64,000 nucleotides of DNA from Escherichia phage ZCEC14. This document shows, piece by piece, positions 2,916-9,556 of this stretch (within the stretch, counting starts at the first letter, position 1; every line of letters starts with the position of its first letter). A model generated the notes under the pieces. The model was given only the letters and a program-made list of their open reading frames with translations, was not told the origin of the DNA and ran no database searches. Position numbers and translations under genes: made by a program. The stretch lies in the sequence record OP168898.1; one strand, 5' to 3'.

Positions 2916-3209
2916 ATGGCCTTAAAAGCAACGGCACTATTTGCCATGCTAGGATTGTCATTTGTTTTATCTCCATCGATTGAAGCGAATGTCGATCCTC
3001 ATTTTGATAAATTTATGGAATCTGGTATTAGGCACGTTTATACACTTTTTGAAAATAAAAGCGTAGAATCGTCTGAACAATTCTATAGTTTTATGAGAAC
3101 GACCTATAAAAATGACCCGTGCTCTTCTGATTTTGAATGTATAGAGCGAGGCGCGGAGATGGCACAATCATACGCTAGAATTATGAACATTAAATTGGAG
3201 ACTGAATGA
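2916..3209 (+). CDS. rI: lysis-inhibition regulator RI (signal-anchor-release protein)
   Basis: 97 aa; N-terminal hydrophobic anchor MALKATALFAMLGLSFVL; matches T4 RI in length and sequence as recalled; SD aggagg. Confidence 0.8.
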   Translation: MALKATALFAMLGLSFVLSPSIEANVDPHFDKFMESGIRHVYTLFENKSVESSEQFYSFMRTTYKNDPCSSDFECIERGAEMAQSYARIMNIKLETE

Positions 3210-3592
3210 AATTCAGCGACTTTTCACAAAGTGGAAAACCTTCGAAGGCAGATGAATACTTAGGTTTATTAATGGCTGCACAAGCTTATTTTCATTCTGC
3301 GCATTTTGAAACTAAAAATTATGCTAGACACAAAGCATACGATTTTATTTTCTCCGAGTTGCCAGATTTGATTGATAAATTTGGTGAACAATATTTGGGG
3401 TATTCTGGTAGAAAATACACACCTTCAATTCCAGATGCCAGTAAACTTCCTACCGACACAATTAAAATGATTGATCGCATATTAGACCAATCTAACAGCA
3501 TTTATAAAGAAATGCCTCCAGCCATCCAAAGCACGATAGATGATATTACTGGAATGTTTTACCAGAGTAAGTATCTTCTTTCCCTCGAATAA
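3206..3592 (+). CDS. hypothetical protein (rI.1 position)
   Basis: 128-aa ORF; ATGA overlap with rI stop. Confidence 0.55.
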
Positions 3593-3596
3593 CATT

Positions 3597-3619
3597 AGTC
3601 TCCTTCGGGAGACTTTTTT
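3597..3619 (+). terminator. intrinsic terminator (UUCG-loop hairpin plus T-run)
   Basis: agtctcc-ttcg-ggagact followed by tttttt. Confidence 0.75.
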
Positions 3620-3629
3620 CATTTTACCG

Positions 3630-3659
3630 GTTTACTTTCCGTTTGAGCTGTGGTATTAT
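3630..3659 (+). promoter_or_regulatory. early sigma70-type promoter
   Basis: -35 GTTTAC 3630-3635, 18-bp spacer, TGgTATTAT -10 at 3654-3659. Confidence 0.7.
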
Positions 3660-3687
3660 ACAACTATCGGATAAAGAGGAGAACATC

Positions 3688-3876
3688 ATGAAAATTGAAG
3701 CACTCAATCAAGAAGGAAATATCTACGTCATCATTAATGGTGATTTTTTCGTCGACATGGATGAAGTTACTAGTGAAGAACTTGTAGAAGTTCTTAAGAA
3801 ACGCTATAGTATGTGTGATGAAGCTGCAACTCATATGGCGTGTGCAATATTCTCTCTTTCATATGTGGTGGAATAA
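3688..3876 (+). CDS. hypothetical protein
   Basis: 62 aa from ATG with SD aagaggag; track ORF 3643 start lies inside the promoter. Confidence 0.5.
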
Positions 3877-4079
3877 TGATTAGTATTGAACAAGCAGATA
3901 AAATTAAAGAATTGGTAGCTTTAATTCGCAAAGCAGATGAGGAACTTAGTGACTTTGCTTGGTTTTCGGCAGGCATTGCAAATAAAGGTATTGAAGAATT
4001 TGAAGCTAAAGTTGATAATGCTGTAGAAGCTTTAGATATGTTTCTTGATGAAATTATCGATCACAATACGAGAGTTTAA
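3876..4079 (+). CDS. small helical protein (xEQxxK family)
   Basis: 67 aa from in-frame ATG; [13 protein letters not shown] motif. Confidence 0.5.
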   Translation: MISIEQADKIKELVALIRKADEELSDFAWFSAGIANKGIEEFEAKVDNAVEALDMFLDEIIDHNTRV

Positions 4080-4081
4080 GT

Positions 4082-4276
4082 ATGCTGACACACGAACAGT
4101 TTGAAAAAATCATTAAATTAGCACGTGATGTTGAAATAGATTCATATCAATTAGCAGTTGAGCATTGTGAAGGATATTCATACGAAGGTATAGCAGCAGC
4201 TAAAAGAGATTTGGATAAATCTAAAGCTAAGTTAGTTCAATATCTTGAAATGATTAGGTGGAATAATGAAAACTGA
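4082..4276 (+). CDS. small helical protein (xEQxxK family)
   Basis: 64-aa ORF; MLTHEQFEKIIKL motif. Confidence 0.5.
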   Translation: MLTHEQFEKIIKLARDVEIDSYQLAVEHCEGYSYEGIAAAKRDLDKSKAKLVQYLEMIRWNNEN

Positions 4277-4439
4277 AAAGCAGATGTTTTTAATGAAGCT
4301 AATTGAAGAATATGCTAATGCAGTTTCTGACTATGAGTGTTCTTCTAGGGAAAGAGGCATAGCTTTTGCAAAGGAAGAAATGAAAATCATGGTTGATGCT
4401 CACACAAAACTCCAGAATTTTATTGAAAACGTCATTTAA
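4266..4439 (+). CDS. hypothetical small protein
   Basis: 57-aa ORF below track cutoff, overlaps upstream stop; codon walk ends at taa 4437-4439. Confidence 0.4.
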   Translation: MKTEKQMFLMKLIEEYANAVSDYECSSRERGIAFAKEEMKIMVDAHTKLQNFIENVI

Positions 4440-4441
4440 TG

Positions 4442-4471
4442 GTTTACAAGTTGGCAAGGTTATGGTATAGT
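4442..4471 (+). promoter_or_regulatory. early sigma70-type promoter inside stem-loop (PeSL-like)
   Basis: -35 GTTTAC 4442-4447, -10 TATAGT 4466-4471; inverted repeat gttggcaag 4450-4458 / cttgccaac 4475-4483. Confidence 0.7.
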
Positions 4472-4499
4472 AATCTTGCCAACTGCCAAGGAGAAGAGA

Positions 4500-4604
4500 A
4501 TGAAAGTTTTGTTTGTTGTGTATGTGATGATTCAATATAATTACCCAATGTTTACTTATAATCTGGTGAACAACATTATTGATATTATTCAAAGGAGCAT
4601 GTAA
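4500..4604 (+). CDS. leader micro-ORF (34 aa)
   Basis: SD aaggag 7 nt upstream of ATG 4500; stop overlaps next ATG (TAATG). Confidence 0.3.
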   Translation: MKVLFVVYVMIQYNYPMFTYNLVNNIIDIIQRSM

Positions 4605-4789
4605 TGACAAGTGAGCAGGCTTTTAAATTAAGAGAATTAATTGAGATGTATAGTAAAGCTGTTCATGCATCAACAGTTATTGATGAATCAGCTTTCTCCG
4701 GACATGCTAATAAGATTAAATACAAAACTCTTATGGAAGAAGCTAAAGTAAATCTTGATTCTTATATTGAAACTTTAATTGGTGAATAA
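4604..4789 (+). CDS. small helical protein (xEQxxK family)
   Basis: 61-aa ORF; SD aaaggag. Confidence 0.5.
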   Translation: MTSEQAFKLRELIEMYSKAVHASTVIDESAFSGHANKIKYKTLMEEAKVNLDSYIETLIGE

Positions 4790-4790
4790 C

Positions 4791-5057
4791 ATGAGCTTTC
4801 CTAAATTAGAAGTAGGCGATTTAGTCTTAACAAAATTGTGGAATGATGCTCAATCAGTAGAAATCTGTCAATATCGTGGAGCAACAGGTAATTTGATGTA
4901 CACGATTTATAACCCAGAAATTTTGTTAGAGTGTCATTTGGAACGCTTTATAAAAGACACCGATAGTATGCCTTATAGTGTATCGATTGTACGTAAATCT
5001 GATACAAAGGAATACTCTAAAATTTTAGAACAAATTCATGCCAATAAAAAGGATTAA
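4791..5057 (+). CDS. hypothetical protein
   Basis: 88 aa from in-frame ATG directly after upstream stop. Confidence 0.5.
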   Translation: MSFPKLEVGDLVLTKLWNDAQSVEICQYRGATGNLMYTIYNPEILLECHLERFIKDTDSMPYSVSIVRKSDTKEYSKILEQIHANKKD

Positions 5058-5058
5058 T

Positions 5059-5589
5059 ATGAAACGATTAGTACTAGAAGTTAGTTCACTTTTTGGTGAA
5101 TTGGCTATAGAAAAAGTAAATAATATGTATCGTTTGACGCAAGAAGACGATATGCTATATTTTACGCCTAGCGAAATTATTCATTTAACCCAAATTGAAA
5201 AACCATACACTGATAAAATTGTAAGCATTAATGATGAGCATAAAATTCATTTTTATTCTTTATGCCCAGGATTTAATATTGAAAGCGAGTCAATATGCTT
5301 ATCAATTAATAATTGGGATAATTTTATAGCTAAGATTAAATATTTCTATTATTCTAATGAAAGAAAACATGGTTTAAAATGGTTTAAAAATTGCAATGCT
5401 ATTATTACTAACGCTTGTAATCAAAATTATGAAACTGTTTTAAATGTATCAAAATGCTATGAAGAGGGAGATGTCTTAACTATTCGTCAATCGGTAAATG
5501 ATGTTAATGTTGTTGTATTAAACAAAGAAGAAGCTGTTTTATTAAAGACTTATCTTGATTCTGTCATTCCAACTATGATTTCAAAGTGA
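5059..5589 (+). CDS. hypothetical protein (duplicated family, copy 1)
   Basis: 176 aa; shares GFNIE(S/D)E and C-terminal YL(D/T)xVxPxM motifs with next ORF. Confidence 0.55.
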   Translation: MKRLVLEVSSLFGELAIEKVNNMYRLTQEDDMLYFTPSEIIHLTQIEKPYTDKIVSINDEHKIHFYSLCPGFNIESESICLSINNWDNFIAKIKYFYYSNERKHGLKWFKNCNAIITNACNQNYETVLNVSKCYEEGDVLTIRQSVNDVNVVVLNKEEAVLLKTYLDSVIPTMISK

Positions 5590-5595
5590 GGAAAT

Positions 5596-6117
5596 ATGTT
5601 TATTTCAAGTGAAAGTGGTTTAATTCGTGTTGAATTTAAAAATGACATCTTCCTTATTCAAGGAGATGATAATATTAAAATGAGTTATGACGAAATTAAG
5701 AAAATTTGTCATGCTCTTGAAAGTCATGGAAAAGTAAATGCTACTATCGATATAGGCGATTTATGGGTGACACTTTATGAAGTATCCGAAGGATTTAACA
5801 TTGAAGATGAAAACAACATCTTAGCTATTGATAAAAGAAGTGATTTGTTTGATGTGTTAAAAGTTTATGAACAGTCAAACGGTGGAAGAAAAGCCGTATT
5901 AATTTATCAAAAACCGCATTCATGTGGAACTGCTTCAATCATTTCAAATATTGAAGATGAAACTGATACTTATATGTGTGTTTTGAAAGCTGGCCGTGAC
6001 CGTCATCCGGATTTTATTTCTATTCGTCAAAACAATGAAGAAATTTCATTATCAAAATCAGAAGCTGAAGCTATGATTAAGTATTTAACAACTGTTACAC
6101 CTTCAATGAAAGGATAA
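5596..6117 (+). CDS. hypothetical protein (duplicated family, copy 2)
   Basis: 173 aa; SD gtgagg; paralogue of 5059-5589. Confidence 0.55.
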   Translation: MFISSESGLIRVEFKNDIFLIQGDDNIKMSYDEIKKICHALESHGKVNATIDIGDLWVTLYEVSEGFNIEDENNILAIDKRSDLFDVLKVYEQSNGGRKAVLIYQKPHSCGTASIISNIEDETDTYMCVLKAGRDRHPDFISIRQNNEEISLSKSEAEAMIKYLTTVTPSMKG

Positions 6118-6119
6118 TT

Positions 6120-6581
6120 ATGATTATTAATGAAAGCTCTTGGCACTATAAATTATTCAAAATGTTTAATGATGAATGGAAACGGCCTAAGACACTATGC
6201 GCGTATTTTTGGTCTATTGTTATTCCTACATTTTTCGTTTCTTTTTTCGGATGTACTATACTCGCAGGTCTAACTATCATCTGTGCAGAAATCATACAGA
6301 AATGGTTTATTTTTGGTAGTTTATGGACTCTTATTCCATCAGCATTTGTACTTGCCATTTTGCTTGTTTTACTTATTATTGGTTCATTTGTTATTCCTGC
6401 ACAACTGCATGAAAAATATAAAGATTATAAATGGAAAAAGGATTATGCTTTACATGTAGAAAATATTGATAGGGCGTATAAAGGTTTACCTCCTATTCAA
6501 CCCAAGAAATCTATTATCGTCGAATTTTTAAAAGCTCGTAAAGCTAAAGTATGTCCTGTTATTGAATATAAGGCTGAATGA
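6120..6581 (+). CDS. membrane protein (about 3 predicted TM helices)
   Basis: 153 aa with long hydrophobic stretches. Confidence 0.55.
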   Translation: MIINESSWHYKLFKMFNDEWKRPKTLCAYFWSIVIPTFFVSFFGCTILAGLTIICAEIIQKWFIFGSLWTLIPSAFVLAILLVLLIIGSFVIPAQLHEKYKDYKWKKDYALHVENIDRAYKGLPPIQPKKSIIVEFLKARKAKVCPVIEYKAE

Positions 6582-7591
6582 TGAAAACAGTAATGAAAAG
6601 CTATTTTGGTAGTCATCTTTATGGAACTTCTACTCCAGAATCTGATGTAGATTTTAAAGAAATCTTTGTTCCTCCTGCTCGCGATATTCTTATCGGAAAT
6701 GTTAAAGAGCATATGAGTAAAAACACTAACAACACATCATCTAAAAACACTAAAGATGATATTGACCATGAACTATACAGTCTTAAGTATTTCTTTAAAT
6801 TAGCAGCAGACGGTGAAACTGTAGCATTGGATATGCTTCACACTCCGCCTGAACTAGTAGTTAAATCTGATTTGCCTGATGTATGGAAATTTATCCAAGA
6901 CAATCGTTCACGGTTTTATACAACTAACATGAAAGCCTATTTAGGATATGTGCGCAAGCAAGCTTCTAAATATGGTGTTAAGGGTTCTCGTTTGGCTGCA
7001 TTGCGTAATGTATTGAAAGTAGTTAATCAAATCCCCGATCAGTGGGTTGATTACCGAGAAGATGGAACACAAGGACAACGTCGTACTAAAATTGTAGATA
7101 TTAAACATCGGCTTCCTGAAAACGAGTTCTGTGAATGGGTATTCCATAACCACGAGAAAACAGGTCCTCAAACGTTCTATACTGTTCTTGGACGTAAGTA
7201 CCAAACCACCTTGTCTTTAATCGAGCTCAAGCAATCTCTGAATAAGCTCGATGCGGAATATGGTGAACGTGCTCGTAAGGCTGAAGCTAATGAAGGTATT
7301 GACTGGAAAGCTCTGAGTCATGCTTATCGCGCAGGGTATCAATTGATGGAAATCTACCAAACAGGTGATTTGGTGTTCCCATTGCGCGAAGCCTCTATCA
7401 TTAAGCTGATTAAAGCCGGTGAATTACCATTTAAAGAAGTTCAAGAACTTCTTGAAGATACTGTTGATTTGGTTGAAGTCCTAGCCATCCAGGCAGCTAA
7501 GAACGGTATGCCTGATAAGGTAGACATGAAGTTCTGGGACAAGTTCGTTGAAGAGGTATATCTTGAAAACCACCGAAGTTATTATAAATGA
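6578..7591 (+). CDS. Pol-beta-superfamily nucleotidyltransferase-like protein
   Basis: 337 aa; N-terminal GSHLYGTSTPESDVDF fits the hG[GS]x9-13Dh[DE]h signature. Confidence 0.6.
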   Translation: MMKTVMKSYFGSHLYGTSTPESDVDFKEIFVPPARDILIGNVKEHMSKNTNNTSSKNTKDDIDHELYSLKYFFKLAADGETVALDMLHTPPELVVKSDLPDVWKFIQDNRSRFYTTNMKAYLGYVRKQASKYGVKGSRLAALRNVLKVVNQIPDQWVDYREDGTQGQRRTKIVDIKHRLPENEFCEWVFHNHEKTGPQTFYTVLGRKYQTTLSLIELKQSLNKLDAEYGERARKAEANEGIDWKALSHAYRAGYQLMEIYQTGDLVFPLREASIIKLIKAGELPFKEVQELLEDTVDLVEVLAIQAAKNGMPDKVDMKFWDKFVEEVYLENHRSYYK

Positions 7592-7593
7592 TA

Positions 7594-7616
7594 GGGAGCC
7601 TTCGGTCTCCCTTTTT
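7594..7616 (+). terminator. intrinsic terminator
   Basis: gggagcc-ttcg-gtctccc hairpin followed by tttttg. Confidence 0.7.
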
Positions 7617-7639
7617 GTTTAAAATGACGTCACAAAGTT

Positions 7640-7669
7640 GTTTACAAGCATAAAGCTTTATGGTACTAT
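7640..7669 (+). promoter_or_regulatory. early sigma70-type promoter
   Basis: -35 GTTTAC 7640-7645, 18-bp spacer, TGgTACTAT -10 at 7664-7669. Confidence 0.7.
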
Positions 7670-7704
7670 ACAACTATCAACTGATGTGGATTTGGGGGAA
7701 TAAA

Positions 7705-7854
7705 ATGAAAACTACGTTAATTGAAGTAAAAAAGTTGATTGACACAGAAGAGATTTCAGCTTGTTTTGAAAATTTCTTAGAAGATGCAACTGAAGATAAC
7801 GCAGTTTATCTCGCTCAGAAAATTATAGAAACATATTTGGAGCAGAATCAATGA
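7705..7854 (+). CDS. small hypothetical protein
   Basis: 49 aa from ATG with leader ggatttgggggaataaaATG; track start 7660 lies in promoter. Confidence 0.4.
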   Translation: MKTTLIEVKKLIDTEEISACFENFLEDATEDNAVYLAQKIIETYLEQNQ

Positions 7855-8114
7855 CAGTTTACGTAGATGTTTTAATGAATCATGGATGGAAACTTCGCGG
7901 TCATCCAACTAAAAATTGTCATATGTTCACTGATGGAGATATTGAAGAGCTTCATGAAATGGCAGAAGCAATAGGAATGAAACGCTCTTGGTTTCAAGAT
8001 AAACGCATTAAACATTATGACTTACACGCGCGCCGCCGCCAAAAAGCCGTAGAACTTGGAGCTGTAGAAGTATCTCGTCGCGAAGCAGTAAAAATTTGGC
8101 GAACATTAAAATAA
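7851..8114 (+). CDS. hypothetical protein
   Basis: 87-aa ORF, ATGA overlap with upstream stop; His/Asp-rich (HPTKNCHMFTD...HYDLH). Confidence 0.5.
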   Translation: MTVYVDVLMNHGWKLRGHPTKNCHMFTDGDIEELHEMAEAIGMKRSWFQDKRIKHYDLHARRRQKAVELGAVEVSRREAVKIWRTLK

Positions 8115-8117
8115 ATT

Positions 8118-8147
8118 GTTTACAGTAGGGTAGTAGTGTGATACTAT
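8118..8147 (+). promoter_or_regulatory. early sigma70-type promoter inside stem-loop
   Basis: -35 GTTTAC, 18-bp spacer, TACTAT -10; flanking inverted repeat agggta/taccct. Confidence 0.65.
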
Positions 8148-8183
8148 TACCCTATCAAAACAAATGTGAAATTGGAGAATAAA

Positions 8184-9152
8184 ATGAAAACTGTAACTAT
8201 CAATAAGGGTATCTACTTCGGTAAAGAAATCTCTGGAACTTTTGAGCTCTTAGGCGAATGGTTCCCAGATAATGCTCCGGTAGATGCACAAGGAGATGGT
8301 AAAGTTTTTGTTGAAATTGACGGTAAACGTCGCGGTGTTTGGGTTTACAAATCAGATATTTCATATGATGGTGTAAAAGTTGAAGAAGTTAAAGAATCAT
8401 ATGAAGATATGAAAACCCGCATTAATAAAAGATTTAATGTTATGGGAATGATGACGAATGGTATTATTAATGGAAATATTCGTTCATTGATTATCTCTGG
8501 CGCAGCAGGTATTGGTAAAACGTATTCTTTAGATAAAGCTTTAAATAAAGCAAATGATAATGGATACATTGAATATAAAAGCATTAACGGTAAAATCTCT
8601 GGTATTGGTCTTTATGAACAGCTTTGGAATAATCGTGAAGAGAATTCTGTCCTTTTGATTGATGATGTGGATGTTTTCTCTGATATGGACATTCTTAATC
8701 TTCTAAAAGCTGCTCTGGACACTGGAGAGACCCGTAAAGTCTGCTGGAGCACTGCATCTTCTTACTTAGAAGAAAAAGGCATTGACCGTGAGTTTGAATT
8801 TAAAGGAACGATTGTTTTTATCACAAACGTTGACATTGACCGCGAATTAGACCGTGGTACTAAACTTGCTCCACATTTACAAGCATTAGTGTCCCGCTCA
8901 GTTTATTTAGATTTGGGTGTTCACACTAATGAAGAAATTATGGTCAGGGTTGAAGATGTTATTCTTTCAACTGACATGATGCAAAAGCGCGGTCTTTCTG
9001 ATGAAGAAACTTATAAAGCATTATCATGGATGAAAGTTAATGTTAATCGTTTACGCAATGTTTCACTGCGTACTGCTCTTTATCTTGCTGACTTTATTAT
9101 GACCGACAAAAACGGTTGGGAAGAAATTGCTGAGGTTACTCTTCTGAAATAA
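8184..9152 (+). CDS. AAA+ family ATPase
   Basis: 322 aa from ATG with SD ggaga; Walker A GAAGIGKT and Walker B LLIDDVD. Confidence 0.65.
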   Translation: MKTVTINKGIYFGKEISGTFELLGEWFPDNAPVDAQGDGKVFVEIDGKRRGVWVYKSDISYDGVKVEEVKESYEDMKTRINKRFNVMGMMTNGIINGNIRSLIISGAAGIGKTYSLDKALNKANDNGYIEYKSINGKISGIGLYEQLWNNREENSVLLIDDVDVFSDMDILNLLKAALDTGETRKVCWSTASSYLEEKGIDREFEFKGTIVFITNVDIDRELDRGTKLAPHLQALVSRSVYLDLGVHTNEEIMVRVEDVILSTDMMQKRGLSDEETYKALSWMKVNVNRLRNVSLRTALYLADFIMTDKNGWEEIAEVTLLK

Positions 9153-9241
9153 TTCATAAGAGGACTTCTATGACAAAAAGGCAGTTCAGAAATAGATTAT
9201 ATGGACTGCCATTAAAAAGATGACTAGAATTAAACTGGTGA

Positions 9242-9556
9242 ATGGAGGTAGTGATGTTATACTCAAAGGCTCGTGAAATTTACGAAACTAAAATTAAAGA
9301 AGCAGTATTTCAGTTCGCAACGACAATGCGATGGACAAATGACTGGGAGTATTCAAAAAATCATAAGAAGCCCATGGTGACAAGAAAGGCTCATATGTTG
9401 GTGTTAATAGACCGTGAGCAGATTAAAGCCCGAGAAGCCCTCCAGAATCATAAAAAGGCTGCCTTTGAATGGTTTATGGATAACACTGCTCCTGAGACTA
9501 AGAAAGCAGTAAGCGCATGGTTCAGTGGAAAAAATTGTGAAAGAAGTTTCTTTTAG
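9242..9556 (+). CDS. hypothetical protein
   Basis: 104-aa ORF; alternative ATG at 9254 preceded by ggagg. Confidence 0.45.
   Translation: MEVVMLYSKAREIYETKIKEAVFQFATTMRWTNDWEYSKNHKKPMVTRKAHMLVLIDREQIKAREALQNHKKAAFEWFMDNTAPETKKAVSAWFSGKNCERSFF

Follow-up and report, generated by a model that had tools for sequence, protein, structure and literature searches.

The founding example of RNA repair is the mending of tRNAs by Pnkp and Rnl1 of bacteriophage T4, which acts against the anticodon nuclease PrrC. Nucleases of the RloC type also excise the wobble nucleotide, and it has been proposed that this defeats Pnkp/Rnl1 repair. The present paper deals with nrdC.11, a gene of T4-like phages for a nucleotidyltransferase of the RlaP family, for which the replacement of such nucleotides has been predicted. 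The copy in question lies in a stretch of 64,000 nucleotides from Escherichia phage ZCEC14 (OP168898.1), here called the window, and had been pointed out in a reading of the letters alone, made without database searches (the sequence-only reading).

In a comparison of jumbo phages it was predicted that RlaP replaces the nucleotides removed by RloC-type nucleases, after which the ends are ligated (PMC7824862). Biochemical data come from a preprint of December 2025 on two Pseudomonas enzymes (from P. fluorescens and P. aeruginosa), whose genes lie between rtcB and rtcA (bioRxiv 10.64898/2025.12.29.696909, the source of all RlaP data in this paragraph). These enzymes transfer one or two nucleoside monophosphates (NMPs), or the deoxy forms (dNMPs), to the 3′-OH of RNA with an optimum in Mn2+, act neither on DNA nor on protein, and leave the proteins of E. 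coli unlabelled. With an annealed tRNA mimic, PfRlaP favours the 5′ half of a nicked anticodon over the acceptor 3′ end, and the aminoacylation of a tRNA short of one anticodon-loop nucleotide is partly restored by RlaP. It should be noted that full-length tRNAs and rRNA-sized species are labelled as well and that there is little specificity for the nucleoside triphosphate (NTP). In the crystal structure of PfRlaP a nucleotidyltransferase domain and a helical domain surround a cleft. In the sequence similarity network (SSN) of the same preprint canonical RlaP is cluster 1a and "T4NrdC.11" is cluster 5, the function of which is called unknown.

Identity, catalytic residues and fold of NrdC.11

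The open reading frame (ORF) at 6578–7591 encodes 337 amino acids, or 336 from the second ATG (6581), which most database entries take as the start; the first ATG, at 6578, shares bases with the stop codon of the upstream gene (ATGA). Positions 4400–8200 of the window are 99.6% identical to Escherichia phage vB_EcoM_P8 (Tequatrovirus) and 91–93% identical to many other T4-like phages. Over its full length the protein is ~87–88% identical to the copies of T2 and other members of Tequatrovirus, and the orthologue in RB51 is annotated nrdC.11. In T4 itself, nrdC.11 encodes a "nucleotidyltransferase" of 336 amino acids (NP_049709) and lies between mobD and nrdC.10. Both the high full-length identity and the position upstream of nrdC.10 place the ZCEC14 protein in the T4 NrdC.11 group; the gene is the Tequatrovirus orthologue of T4 nrdC.11 and thus one that is already catalogued.

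Full-length homologues were found down to E = 1e-225, a tblastn search with the protein gave a match in 1517 phage records, and an exhaustive search of representatives at 50% identity returned 3544 clusters at E ≤ 1e-3, of which 870 reached E ≤ 1e-30; the gene is real, and its matches go far beyond chance. In Pfam the protein matches PF10127, RlaP ("RNA repair pathway DNA polymerase beta family"), with 50.7 bits (cut-off 23) and E = 2.5e-13, the match being confined to residues 7–136, which correspond to positions 23–143 of the 249 of the profile; 120 of 121 diverse homologues match it too. In PHROGs the match is to phrog_388, "nucleotidyltransferase" (E = 3e-132), and a scan against the NCBIfam profiles gave no match. 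NrdC.11 is therefore a nucleotidyltransferase of the Pol-beta superfamily and of the RlaP family, in which it forms a distinct clade of long proteins. That nrdC.11 orthologues match a nucleotidyltransferase group (COG3541) has been on record since 2006 (PMC1524935). The sequence-only reading had left the enzyme unplaced and had called its target unknown, a view that has to be given up: the protein is a known T4 orthologue, has a Pfam family and is named in the 2025 RlaP study. In the literature on nrdC.11 and nrdC.10, no functional study of the T4 NrdC.11 protein was found. Database names are often wrong: orthologues are found under "thioredoxin", "putative HNH homing endonuclease" and "ArsR regulator".

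The protein of 337 residues begins with MMKTVMKSYFGSHLYGTSTPESDVDF, in which G11-S12 is followed by ten residues and then by D23-V24-D25; the ORF and its GS-x10-DVD signature are exactly as the sequence-only reading had described them. The signature agrees with the Pol-beta superfamily motif, hG[GS] followed 9–13 residues on by D-h-[DE], and is conserved across homologues. In an alignment of 121 sequences (the window protein and 120 full-length homologues of 34–52% identity) G11, S12, S22, D23, D25, Y132, H248, R251 and P268 are invariant, which removes the doubt, raised beforehand, whether the Gly-Ser and Asp-x-Asp residues would prove to be conserved. D61, D63, D85, Y15, G16, N57, Y124, Q128, R231, D242 and K244 are conserved in at least 95% of the sequences, and K131 (92%) and W243 (93%) in more than 90%. 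The third catalytic carboxylate is probably D63, to judge from the Pol-beta pattern: it lies in an h-D-h pattern in strand 62–68, and in hhalign the D61/D63 region aligns with an Asp that is invariant in canonical RlaP. An alternative is D85 (6830–6832, 95% conserved). The strongest conserved motif, D242 to R251, lies in the C-terminal helical domain, with 93–99% conservation of D242, W243 and K244, and probably lines the RNA/NTP cleft.

An AlphaFold2 model from the 121-sequence alignment has a predicted local distance difference test score (pLDDT) of 94.7 and a predicted template modelling score (pTM) of 0.83. It consists of a beta-alpha nucleotidyltransferase core (residues 1 to ~115), helices at residues 119–150 and a helical C-terminal region (residues 214–336); strand 3–10 leads into the GS turn, and D23 and D25 stand at the start of strand 24–31. 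The predicted structure confirms the minimal nucleotidyltransferase with an alpha/beta Pol-beta fold, and no solved structure is close to it. The sequence-only reading was thus correct in assigning the protein to the Pol-beta superfamily, as judged from the invariant GS and DxD residues together with the model, and the fold whose absence was to count against that assignment is present. Its description of the C-terminal region as helical holds for residues 214–336 but not throughout, as there is a beta-rich insert at residues 155–209, where conservation is lowest (mean frequency of the top residue 0.26 versus 0.53 in the core).

The best Foldseek matches of the model are kanamycin nucleotidyltransferase (KNTase) and ANT(4′); HalB and 3c18 are also among the closest solved folds, and LinB, AadA and MNT are near. 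MNT antitoxins AMPylate HEPN toxins, and KNTase/ANT enzymes adenylylate small molecules. It could be argued from these neighbours that the substrate of NrdC.11 is a protein or a small molecule, which it would nucleotidylate in the manner of an MNT antitoxin or of KNTase/ANT and so disarm a host factor, in line with the host-takeover or anti-defence enzyme of the sequence-only reading. The C-terminal helices of the model resemble HEPN-like substrate-binding bundles, the C-terminal domain shows no significant similarity to that of canonical RlaP, and the gene lies amid early genes of unknown function. However, the identity to KNTase/ANT(4′), 3c18, LinB, AadA and MNT is only 8–16% with TM-scores of at most 0.45 and no match at the sequence level, and the genomic context of NrdC.11 does not fit that of enzymes modifying antibiotics or toxins: there is no adjoining gene for a HEPN partner, PADLOC gave no match, and the long-form clade recurs in RNA-repair operons. 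In addition, no labelling of E. coli proteins was seen with the characterized RlaP enzymes. We regard such an activity as improbable.

No cGAS/OAS-type or CCA-adding enzyme is among the credible fold matches of the model, and Cid1 appears only with a probability of 0.08 or less. Membership in the CD-NTase/cGAS/OAS group was therefore rejected for want of such a fold, and membership among the CCA-adding enzymes and poly(A) polymerases for want of both a Pfam match and a CCA-adding enzyme among the fold matches. When the PDB was searched by sequence, in a copy that evidently lacked the PfRlaP crystal structure, neither the single protein nor the 121-sequence profile gave a meaningful match. For nucleotide signalling of the CD-NTase/OAS type and for toxin-antitoxin control, both of which the sequence-only reading had considered, no support was found.

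RNA-repair loci and the proposed role

Long-form relatives are also found in cellular organisms. When a single genome from each prokaryotic species was scanned for the motif DWKAx[SH]HAxR, 80 loci with full-length relatives (34–53% identity) were obtained, the neighbouring ORFs of which were clustered and checked against Pfam, a neighbour being any within 6 kb. RtcB is found near the long-form gene in 9 of these 80 loci, bacterial Pnkp (kinase-phosphatase-ligase) in 7, Hen1 in 5, Ro60/TROVE in 4 and T4-type PNKP in 3; at least one of the five is present in 18 loci. Among the 117 strictly operonic neighbours, the RNA-repair families are the sole recurring theme (polynucleotide-kinase AAA_33, Hen1, RtcB, PNKP_ligase, HAD_PNKP and RNA_lig_T4_1). 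For example, a contig of a bacterial metagenome-assembled genome (locus L081) carries an NrdC.11-like gene (1120–2073), a gene for an Rnl1-type ligase (PF09511; 2070–3128) and one for a T4-type PNKP (PF25109; 3121–4002) with overlapping stop and start codons, that is, the T4 repair set and the nucleotidyltransferase in one operon. Another locus (L031) contains Ro60, RtcB, RtcA, the long nucleotidyltransferase, a short RlaP, Hen1 and an AAA ATPase, with Pnkp farther downstream. This cellular context supports an RNA-repair role independently and specifically for the clade.

NrdC.11 resembles canonical RlaP in its Pfam family, in a homologous core that has GS, DxD and, probably, a third catalytic Asp, in its combination of a nucleotidyltransferase domain with a helical domain, and in that cellular members of both forms occur in RNA-repair operons. 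The NrdC.11 clade is likely to work like RlaP. [quoted passage not shown] The protein would be expressed early from the T4-type promoter at 4443 and would hold two metal ions by D23, D25 and D63. As in the Pseudomonas enzymes, one or two untemplated NMPs would be moved from NTPs to the 3′-OH of a broken RNA; in the phage this would be a tRNA's 5′ half after cutting by a host anticodon nuclease and trimming through RloC-type excision of the wobble nucleotide. Pnkp/PseT, Rnl1 and Rnl2, encoded elsewhere in the genome, would then rebuild a full-length anticodon loop. These partners should be available in trans, because genes for RNA ligase 1, PseT polynucleotide kinase and RNA ligase 2 are present in the nearest complete genome. 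The proposal of the sequence-only reading that the protein serves host takeover or anti-defence is plausible only in this form, as RNA repair against host anticodon nucleases.

In T4 the enzyme would be dispensable on standard laboratory hosts, and T4 survives a deletion of nrdC.11–mobD.3 (PMC9825161). In one T4 record (OL964745.1, 159,752 bp) the match is limited to the last 35 residues of the protein, which is consistent with a laboratory deletion of most of nrdC.11 and fits dispensability.

Several observations speak against a repair role of the RlaP kind. The activity itself is known only from the Pseudomonas enzymes, and the closest solved folds belong to enzymes that act on small molecules (KNTase, ANT) or make oligo-dA (HalB). 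The alignment of the long form with canonical RlaP by hhalign is significant only over residues 2–90 (probability 95.5%), and a local alignment of the C-terminal halves, ~240 residues, is not significant (probability 0.3%). As to gene neighbourhoods, 49 of the 80 cellular loci have neither an RNA-repair neighbour nor a short RlaP, many of these contigs being short. In phages adjacency to RNA-repair genes is rare: a viral scan with the clade motif gave 80 viral loci, in only 2 of which RtcB is nearby, and in the nearest complete genome the genes for RNA ligase 1, PseT and RNA ligase 2 are ~80 kb away from the nucleotidyltransferase. Finally, in ~15 of the 80 cellular loci a gene for a canonical short RlaP follows directly 3′ of the long form, often with overlapping stop and start codons; this speaks against redundancy of the two enzymes, and the long form may accordingly have another task.

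The short RlaPs of these tandems have 252–289 amino acids and match PF10127 over its full length (E = 1e-62 to 1e-81); the loci are L012, L015, L017, L028, L029, L031, L041, L042, L059, L060, L064, L068, L069 and L077, with the pair at ~6000–7800 in most. In L070 a short RlaP lies ~4.3 kb off on the opposite strand. The tandems suggest that there are two non-redundant RlaP paralogues per RNA-repair operon. Unlike canonical RlaP, the long form is ~70–80 residues longer and contains the beta-rich insert at residues 155–209, which has not been described for PfRlaP, and it falls into a separate SSN cluster (5 rather than 1a). The best hhalign path, which is not significant, pairs K244-x3-H248-x2-R251...P268 with K149-x3-Y153-x2-R156...P172 of the short form. 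Because of the tandem arrangement and of a C-terminal region that cannot be aligned and carries a beta insert, the long form may have an activity of its own, differing in the RNA end, the nucleotide specificity or the templating and exerted perhaps together with NrdC.10, which would provide a third step of tRNA repair that undoes RloC-type excision. This we hold to be possible, if on the whole doubtful.

The tandem pairs can also be taken to indicate a division of labour between RNA ends, in which case NrdC.11 might act on 3′ termini other than those of broken anticodon loops, restoring the 3′-CCA of phage or host tRNAs after its trimming by host nucleases or toxins, or adding tails that alter RNA stability. 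That RlaP labels full-length tRNAs and rRNA-sized species with little NTP specificity would fit, as would Vibrio phage 11895-B1, in which the NrdC.11 homologue is found near tRNA genes and one gene downstream of that for a CCA-adding enzyme. But this neighbourhood was seen only once, PfRlaP preferred the 5′ half of the nicked anticodon to the acceptor 3′ end, and the operon partners of the clade (Pnkp, Hen1, RtcB and Rnl1) are enzymes that seal breaks, so that a function at other 3′ ends appears unlikely. In 11895-B1 the gene of the CCA-adding enzyme (L002:2275–4456), itself close to tRNA genes, is annotated as two joined pieces with an ORF nested inside, possibly an intron or a homing element.

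Genomic surroundings in ZCEC14 and other phages

The features of the region are collected in Table 1. The promoter-like site (TTTACA-17-TATAGT) is, to judge from its letters, likely to be the start of the transcription unit; between it and the hairpin, which starts 2 nt past the nucleotidyltransferase stop codon, six genes are tightly packed or overlap. A transcription unit from a promoter at about 4442 to a terminator at about 7594, as drawn in the sequence-only reading, is thereby borne out, and its outline was right in broad terms but omitted two ORFs (4604–4789 and 4791–5057). The pair of paralogues that it noted is real: the two y05I-like proteins are 24% identical (E = 1e-9) and have PF24449 and PF24448 in common.

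Table 1. Positions in the window of nrdC.11, of its conserved parts and of the neighbouring features.
Feature	Position	Strand	Remarks
T4-early-type sigma-70 promoter-like site (GTTTACA ... TG-n-TATAGT)	4443..4471	+	10/12 matches, upstream TG
Small co-transcribed ORF, 61 amino acids	4604..4789	+	
Phage Tudor domain gene	4791..5057	+	PF24144
y05I-like paralogue 1, orthologue of T4 mobD.1	5059..5589	+	PF24449 and PF24448
y05I-like paralogue 2, in tandem with the first	5596..6117	+	PF24449 and PF24448
Membrane protein, 153 amino acids, syntenic neighbour	6120..6581	+	phrog_944; two long hydrophobic segments
Nucleotidyltransferase gene, orthologue of T4 nrdC.11	6578..7591	+	PF10127, phrog_388, RB51 annotation
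Codons G11-S12-x10-D23-V24-D25	6608..6652	+	Pol-beta signature (hG[GS], then two metal-binding Asp)
Codons D61-I62-D63	6758..6766	+	strand 62–68; D61 95% and D63 96% conserved
Variable beta-rich insert, residues 155–209, between helices of the C-terminal region	7040..7204	+	secondary structure of the model
Codons D242-W-K-A-x-S-H248-A-x-R251	7301..7330	+	strongest conserved motif, C-terminal helical domain
Intrinsic-terminator-like hairpin, then TTTTTGTTT	7593..7612	+	GC-rich; −13.5 kcal/mol
nrdC.10, AAA-type ATPase, next transcription unit downstream	8166..9152	+	98.8% identical to T4 nrdC.10

As in T4, nrdC.11 of ZCEC14 lies upstream of nrdC.10 and downstream of mobD.x, with equal length and direction, in the early region from tk to nrdC. 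Unlike ZCEC14, T4 has the HNH homing endonuclease gene mobD directly upstream of nrdC.11, and it lacks the second y05I copy, the membrane-protein gene, the 64-residue ORF and the DUF4031 gene of the window. Since the flanking genes vary and T4 has no membrane-protein gene, the operon of the sequence-only reading is to be regarded as synteny rather than as a functional module; where ZCEC14 has the second y05I copy and the membrane protein, T4 has mobD. In three distant phages (Vibrio 11895-B1, Vibrio D481 and Erythrobacter XM05) no flanking protein is related to those of the window. A three-gene module of a small upstream gene, the nucleotidyltransferase and a downstream gene of ~85 amino acids was considered for these phages and rejected, the flanking proteins being unrelated.

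The stop codon of the membrane-protein gene overlaps the start codon of the nucleotidyltransferase gene, and a very divergent homologue of the membrane protein is found upstream in 34 of the 80 viral loci. Such an arrangement calls to mind Hailong, a pair of genes for a membrane protein and a nucleotidyltransferase, in which an oligodeoxyadenylate made by HalB gates the membrane channel HalA (PMC13434031). NrdC.11 might accordingly make a free or protein-primed oligonucleotide signal in concert with the upstream membrane protein, for the mimicry or manipulation of defence or for the control of superinfection. However, T4 retains nrdC.11 without the membrane-protein gene, for which reason a Hailong-like pairing was largely rejected, and the distant phage and cellular homologues also lack this partner, which is absent outside the T4-like phages. 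HalB, moreover, has only 217 amino acids without the long C-terminal region; profile searches detected no sequence similarity to it, and in PADLOC both proteins stayed at noise level, the only match being to the GS motif. A HalB-like function is thus very improbable.

The membrane protein had been described as having three transmembrane segments. It contains only two hydrophobic stretches of ~32 residues (about residues 27–58 and 62–93), and a single-sequence model of low confidence (pLDDT 67.7) shows two long helices; on these grounds two transmembrane segments are more likely than three. In other T4-like phages the phrog_944 homologues that precede nrdC.11 show only 25–35% identity, so that the protein evolves fast.

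The most conserved neighbour in T4-like phages is the nrdC.10 AAA ATPase, which is found downstream of the nucleotidyltransferase in 36 of the 80 viral loci and could be its functional partner. Its profile matches are weak ones to nSTAND3/AAA_16 and one to phrog_1250 (function unknown). The viral loci with nrdC.10 include those of Acinetobacter phages, at 61–65% identity. Between nrdC.11 and nrdC.10, at 7660–8114, lie the 64-residue ORF and the DUF4031 gene (PF13223, E = 8e-22) with an early-type promoter of their own (7641–7669). This pair, missing from T4, is found 3–5 kb farther downstream in other T4-like phages and, from these shifts of position, appears to be a small movable cassette.

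Promoters of the T4 early type (GTTTAC... TG-n-TAnnnT) occur in series at 3631–3659, 4443–4471, 7641–7669 and 8119–8147, and together with two hairpin terminators (3597–3614 and 7593–7612) they split the region into short early transcription units. An Rfam search of positions 3000–9500 gave no match. As with nrdC.11, names in databases are often misleading for the mobD.x/y05I genes (3600–5600), which appear as [quoted passage not shown], "helicase loader" or "virion structural protein".

Significance for T4-like phages

T4 RefSeq already annotates nrdC.11 as a nucleotidyltransferase gene, and the window therefore adds no new kind of element. Neither is the idea of a restored nucleotide new, which was published in the 2025 RlaP preprint, in the jumbo-phage comparison (PMC7824862) and, as cited in that preprint, by Burroughs and Aravind (2016). 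What is added here is a link of the NrdC.11 clade itself to RNA repair, chiefly through the operon of nucleotidyltransferase, Rnl1 and PNKP, together with the tandem pairs of long and short RlaP and the finding that the long form has only the catalytic core in common with the characterized enzymes. The remaining value lies in the phenotype of nrdC.11 in T4 and in how the long and the short form divide their labour. If NrdC.11 restores the missing nucleotide, the loop of the arms race with RloC-type nucleases would be closed. And should the long form have a distinct activity, tRNA repair in T4-like phages would include a third step, which could reverse the damage by nucleotide-excising nucleases such as RloC that was thought to be irreparable.

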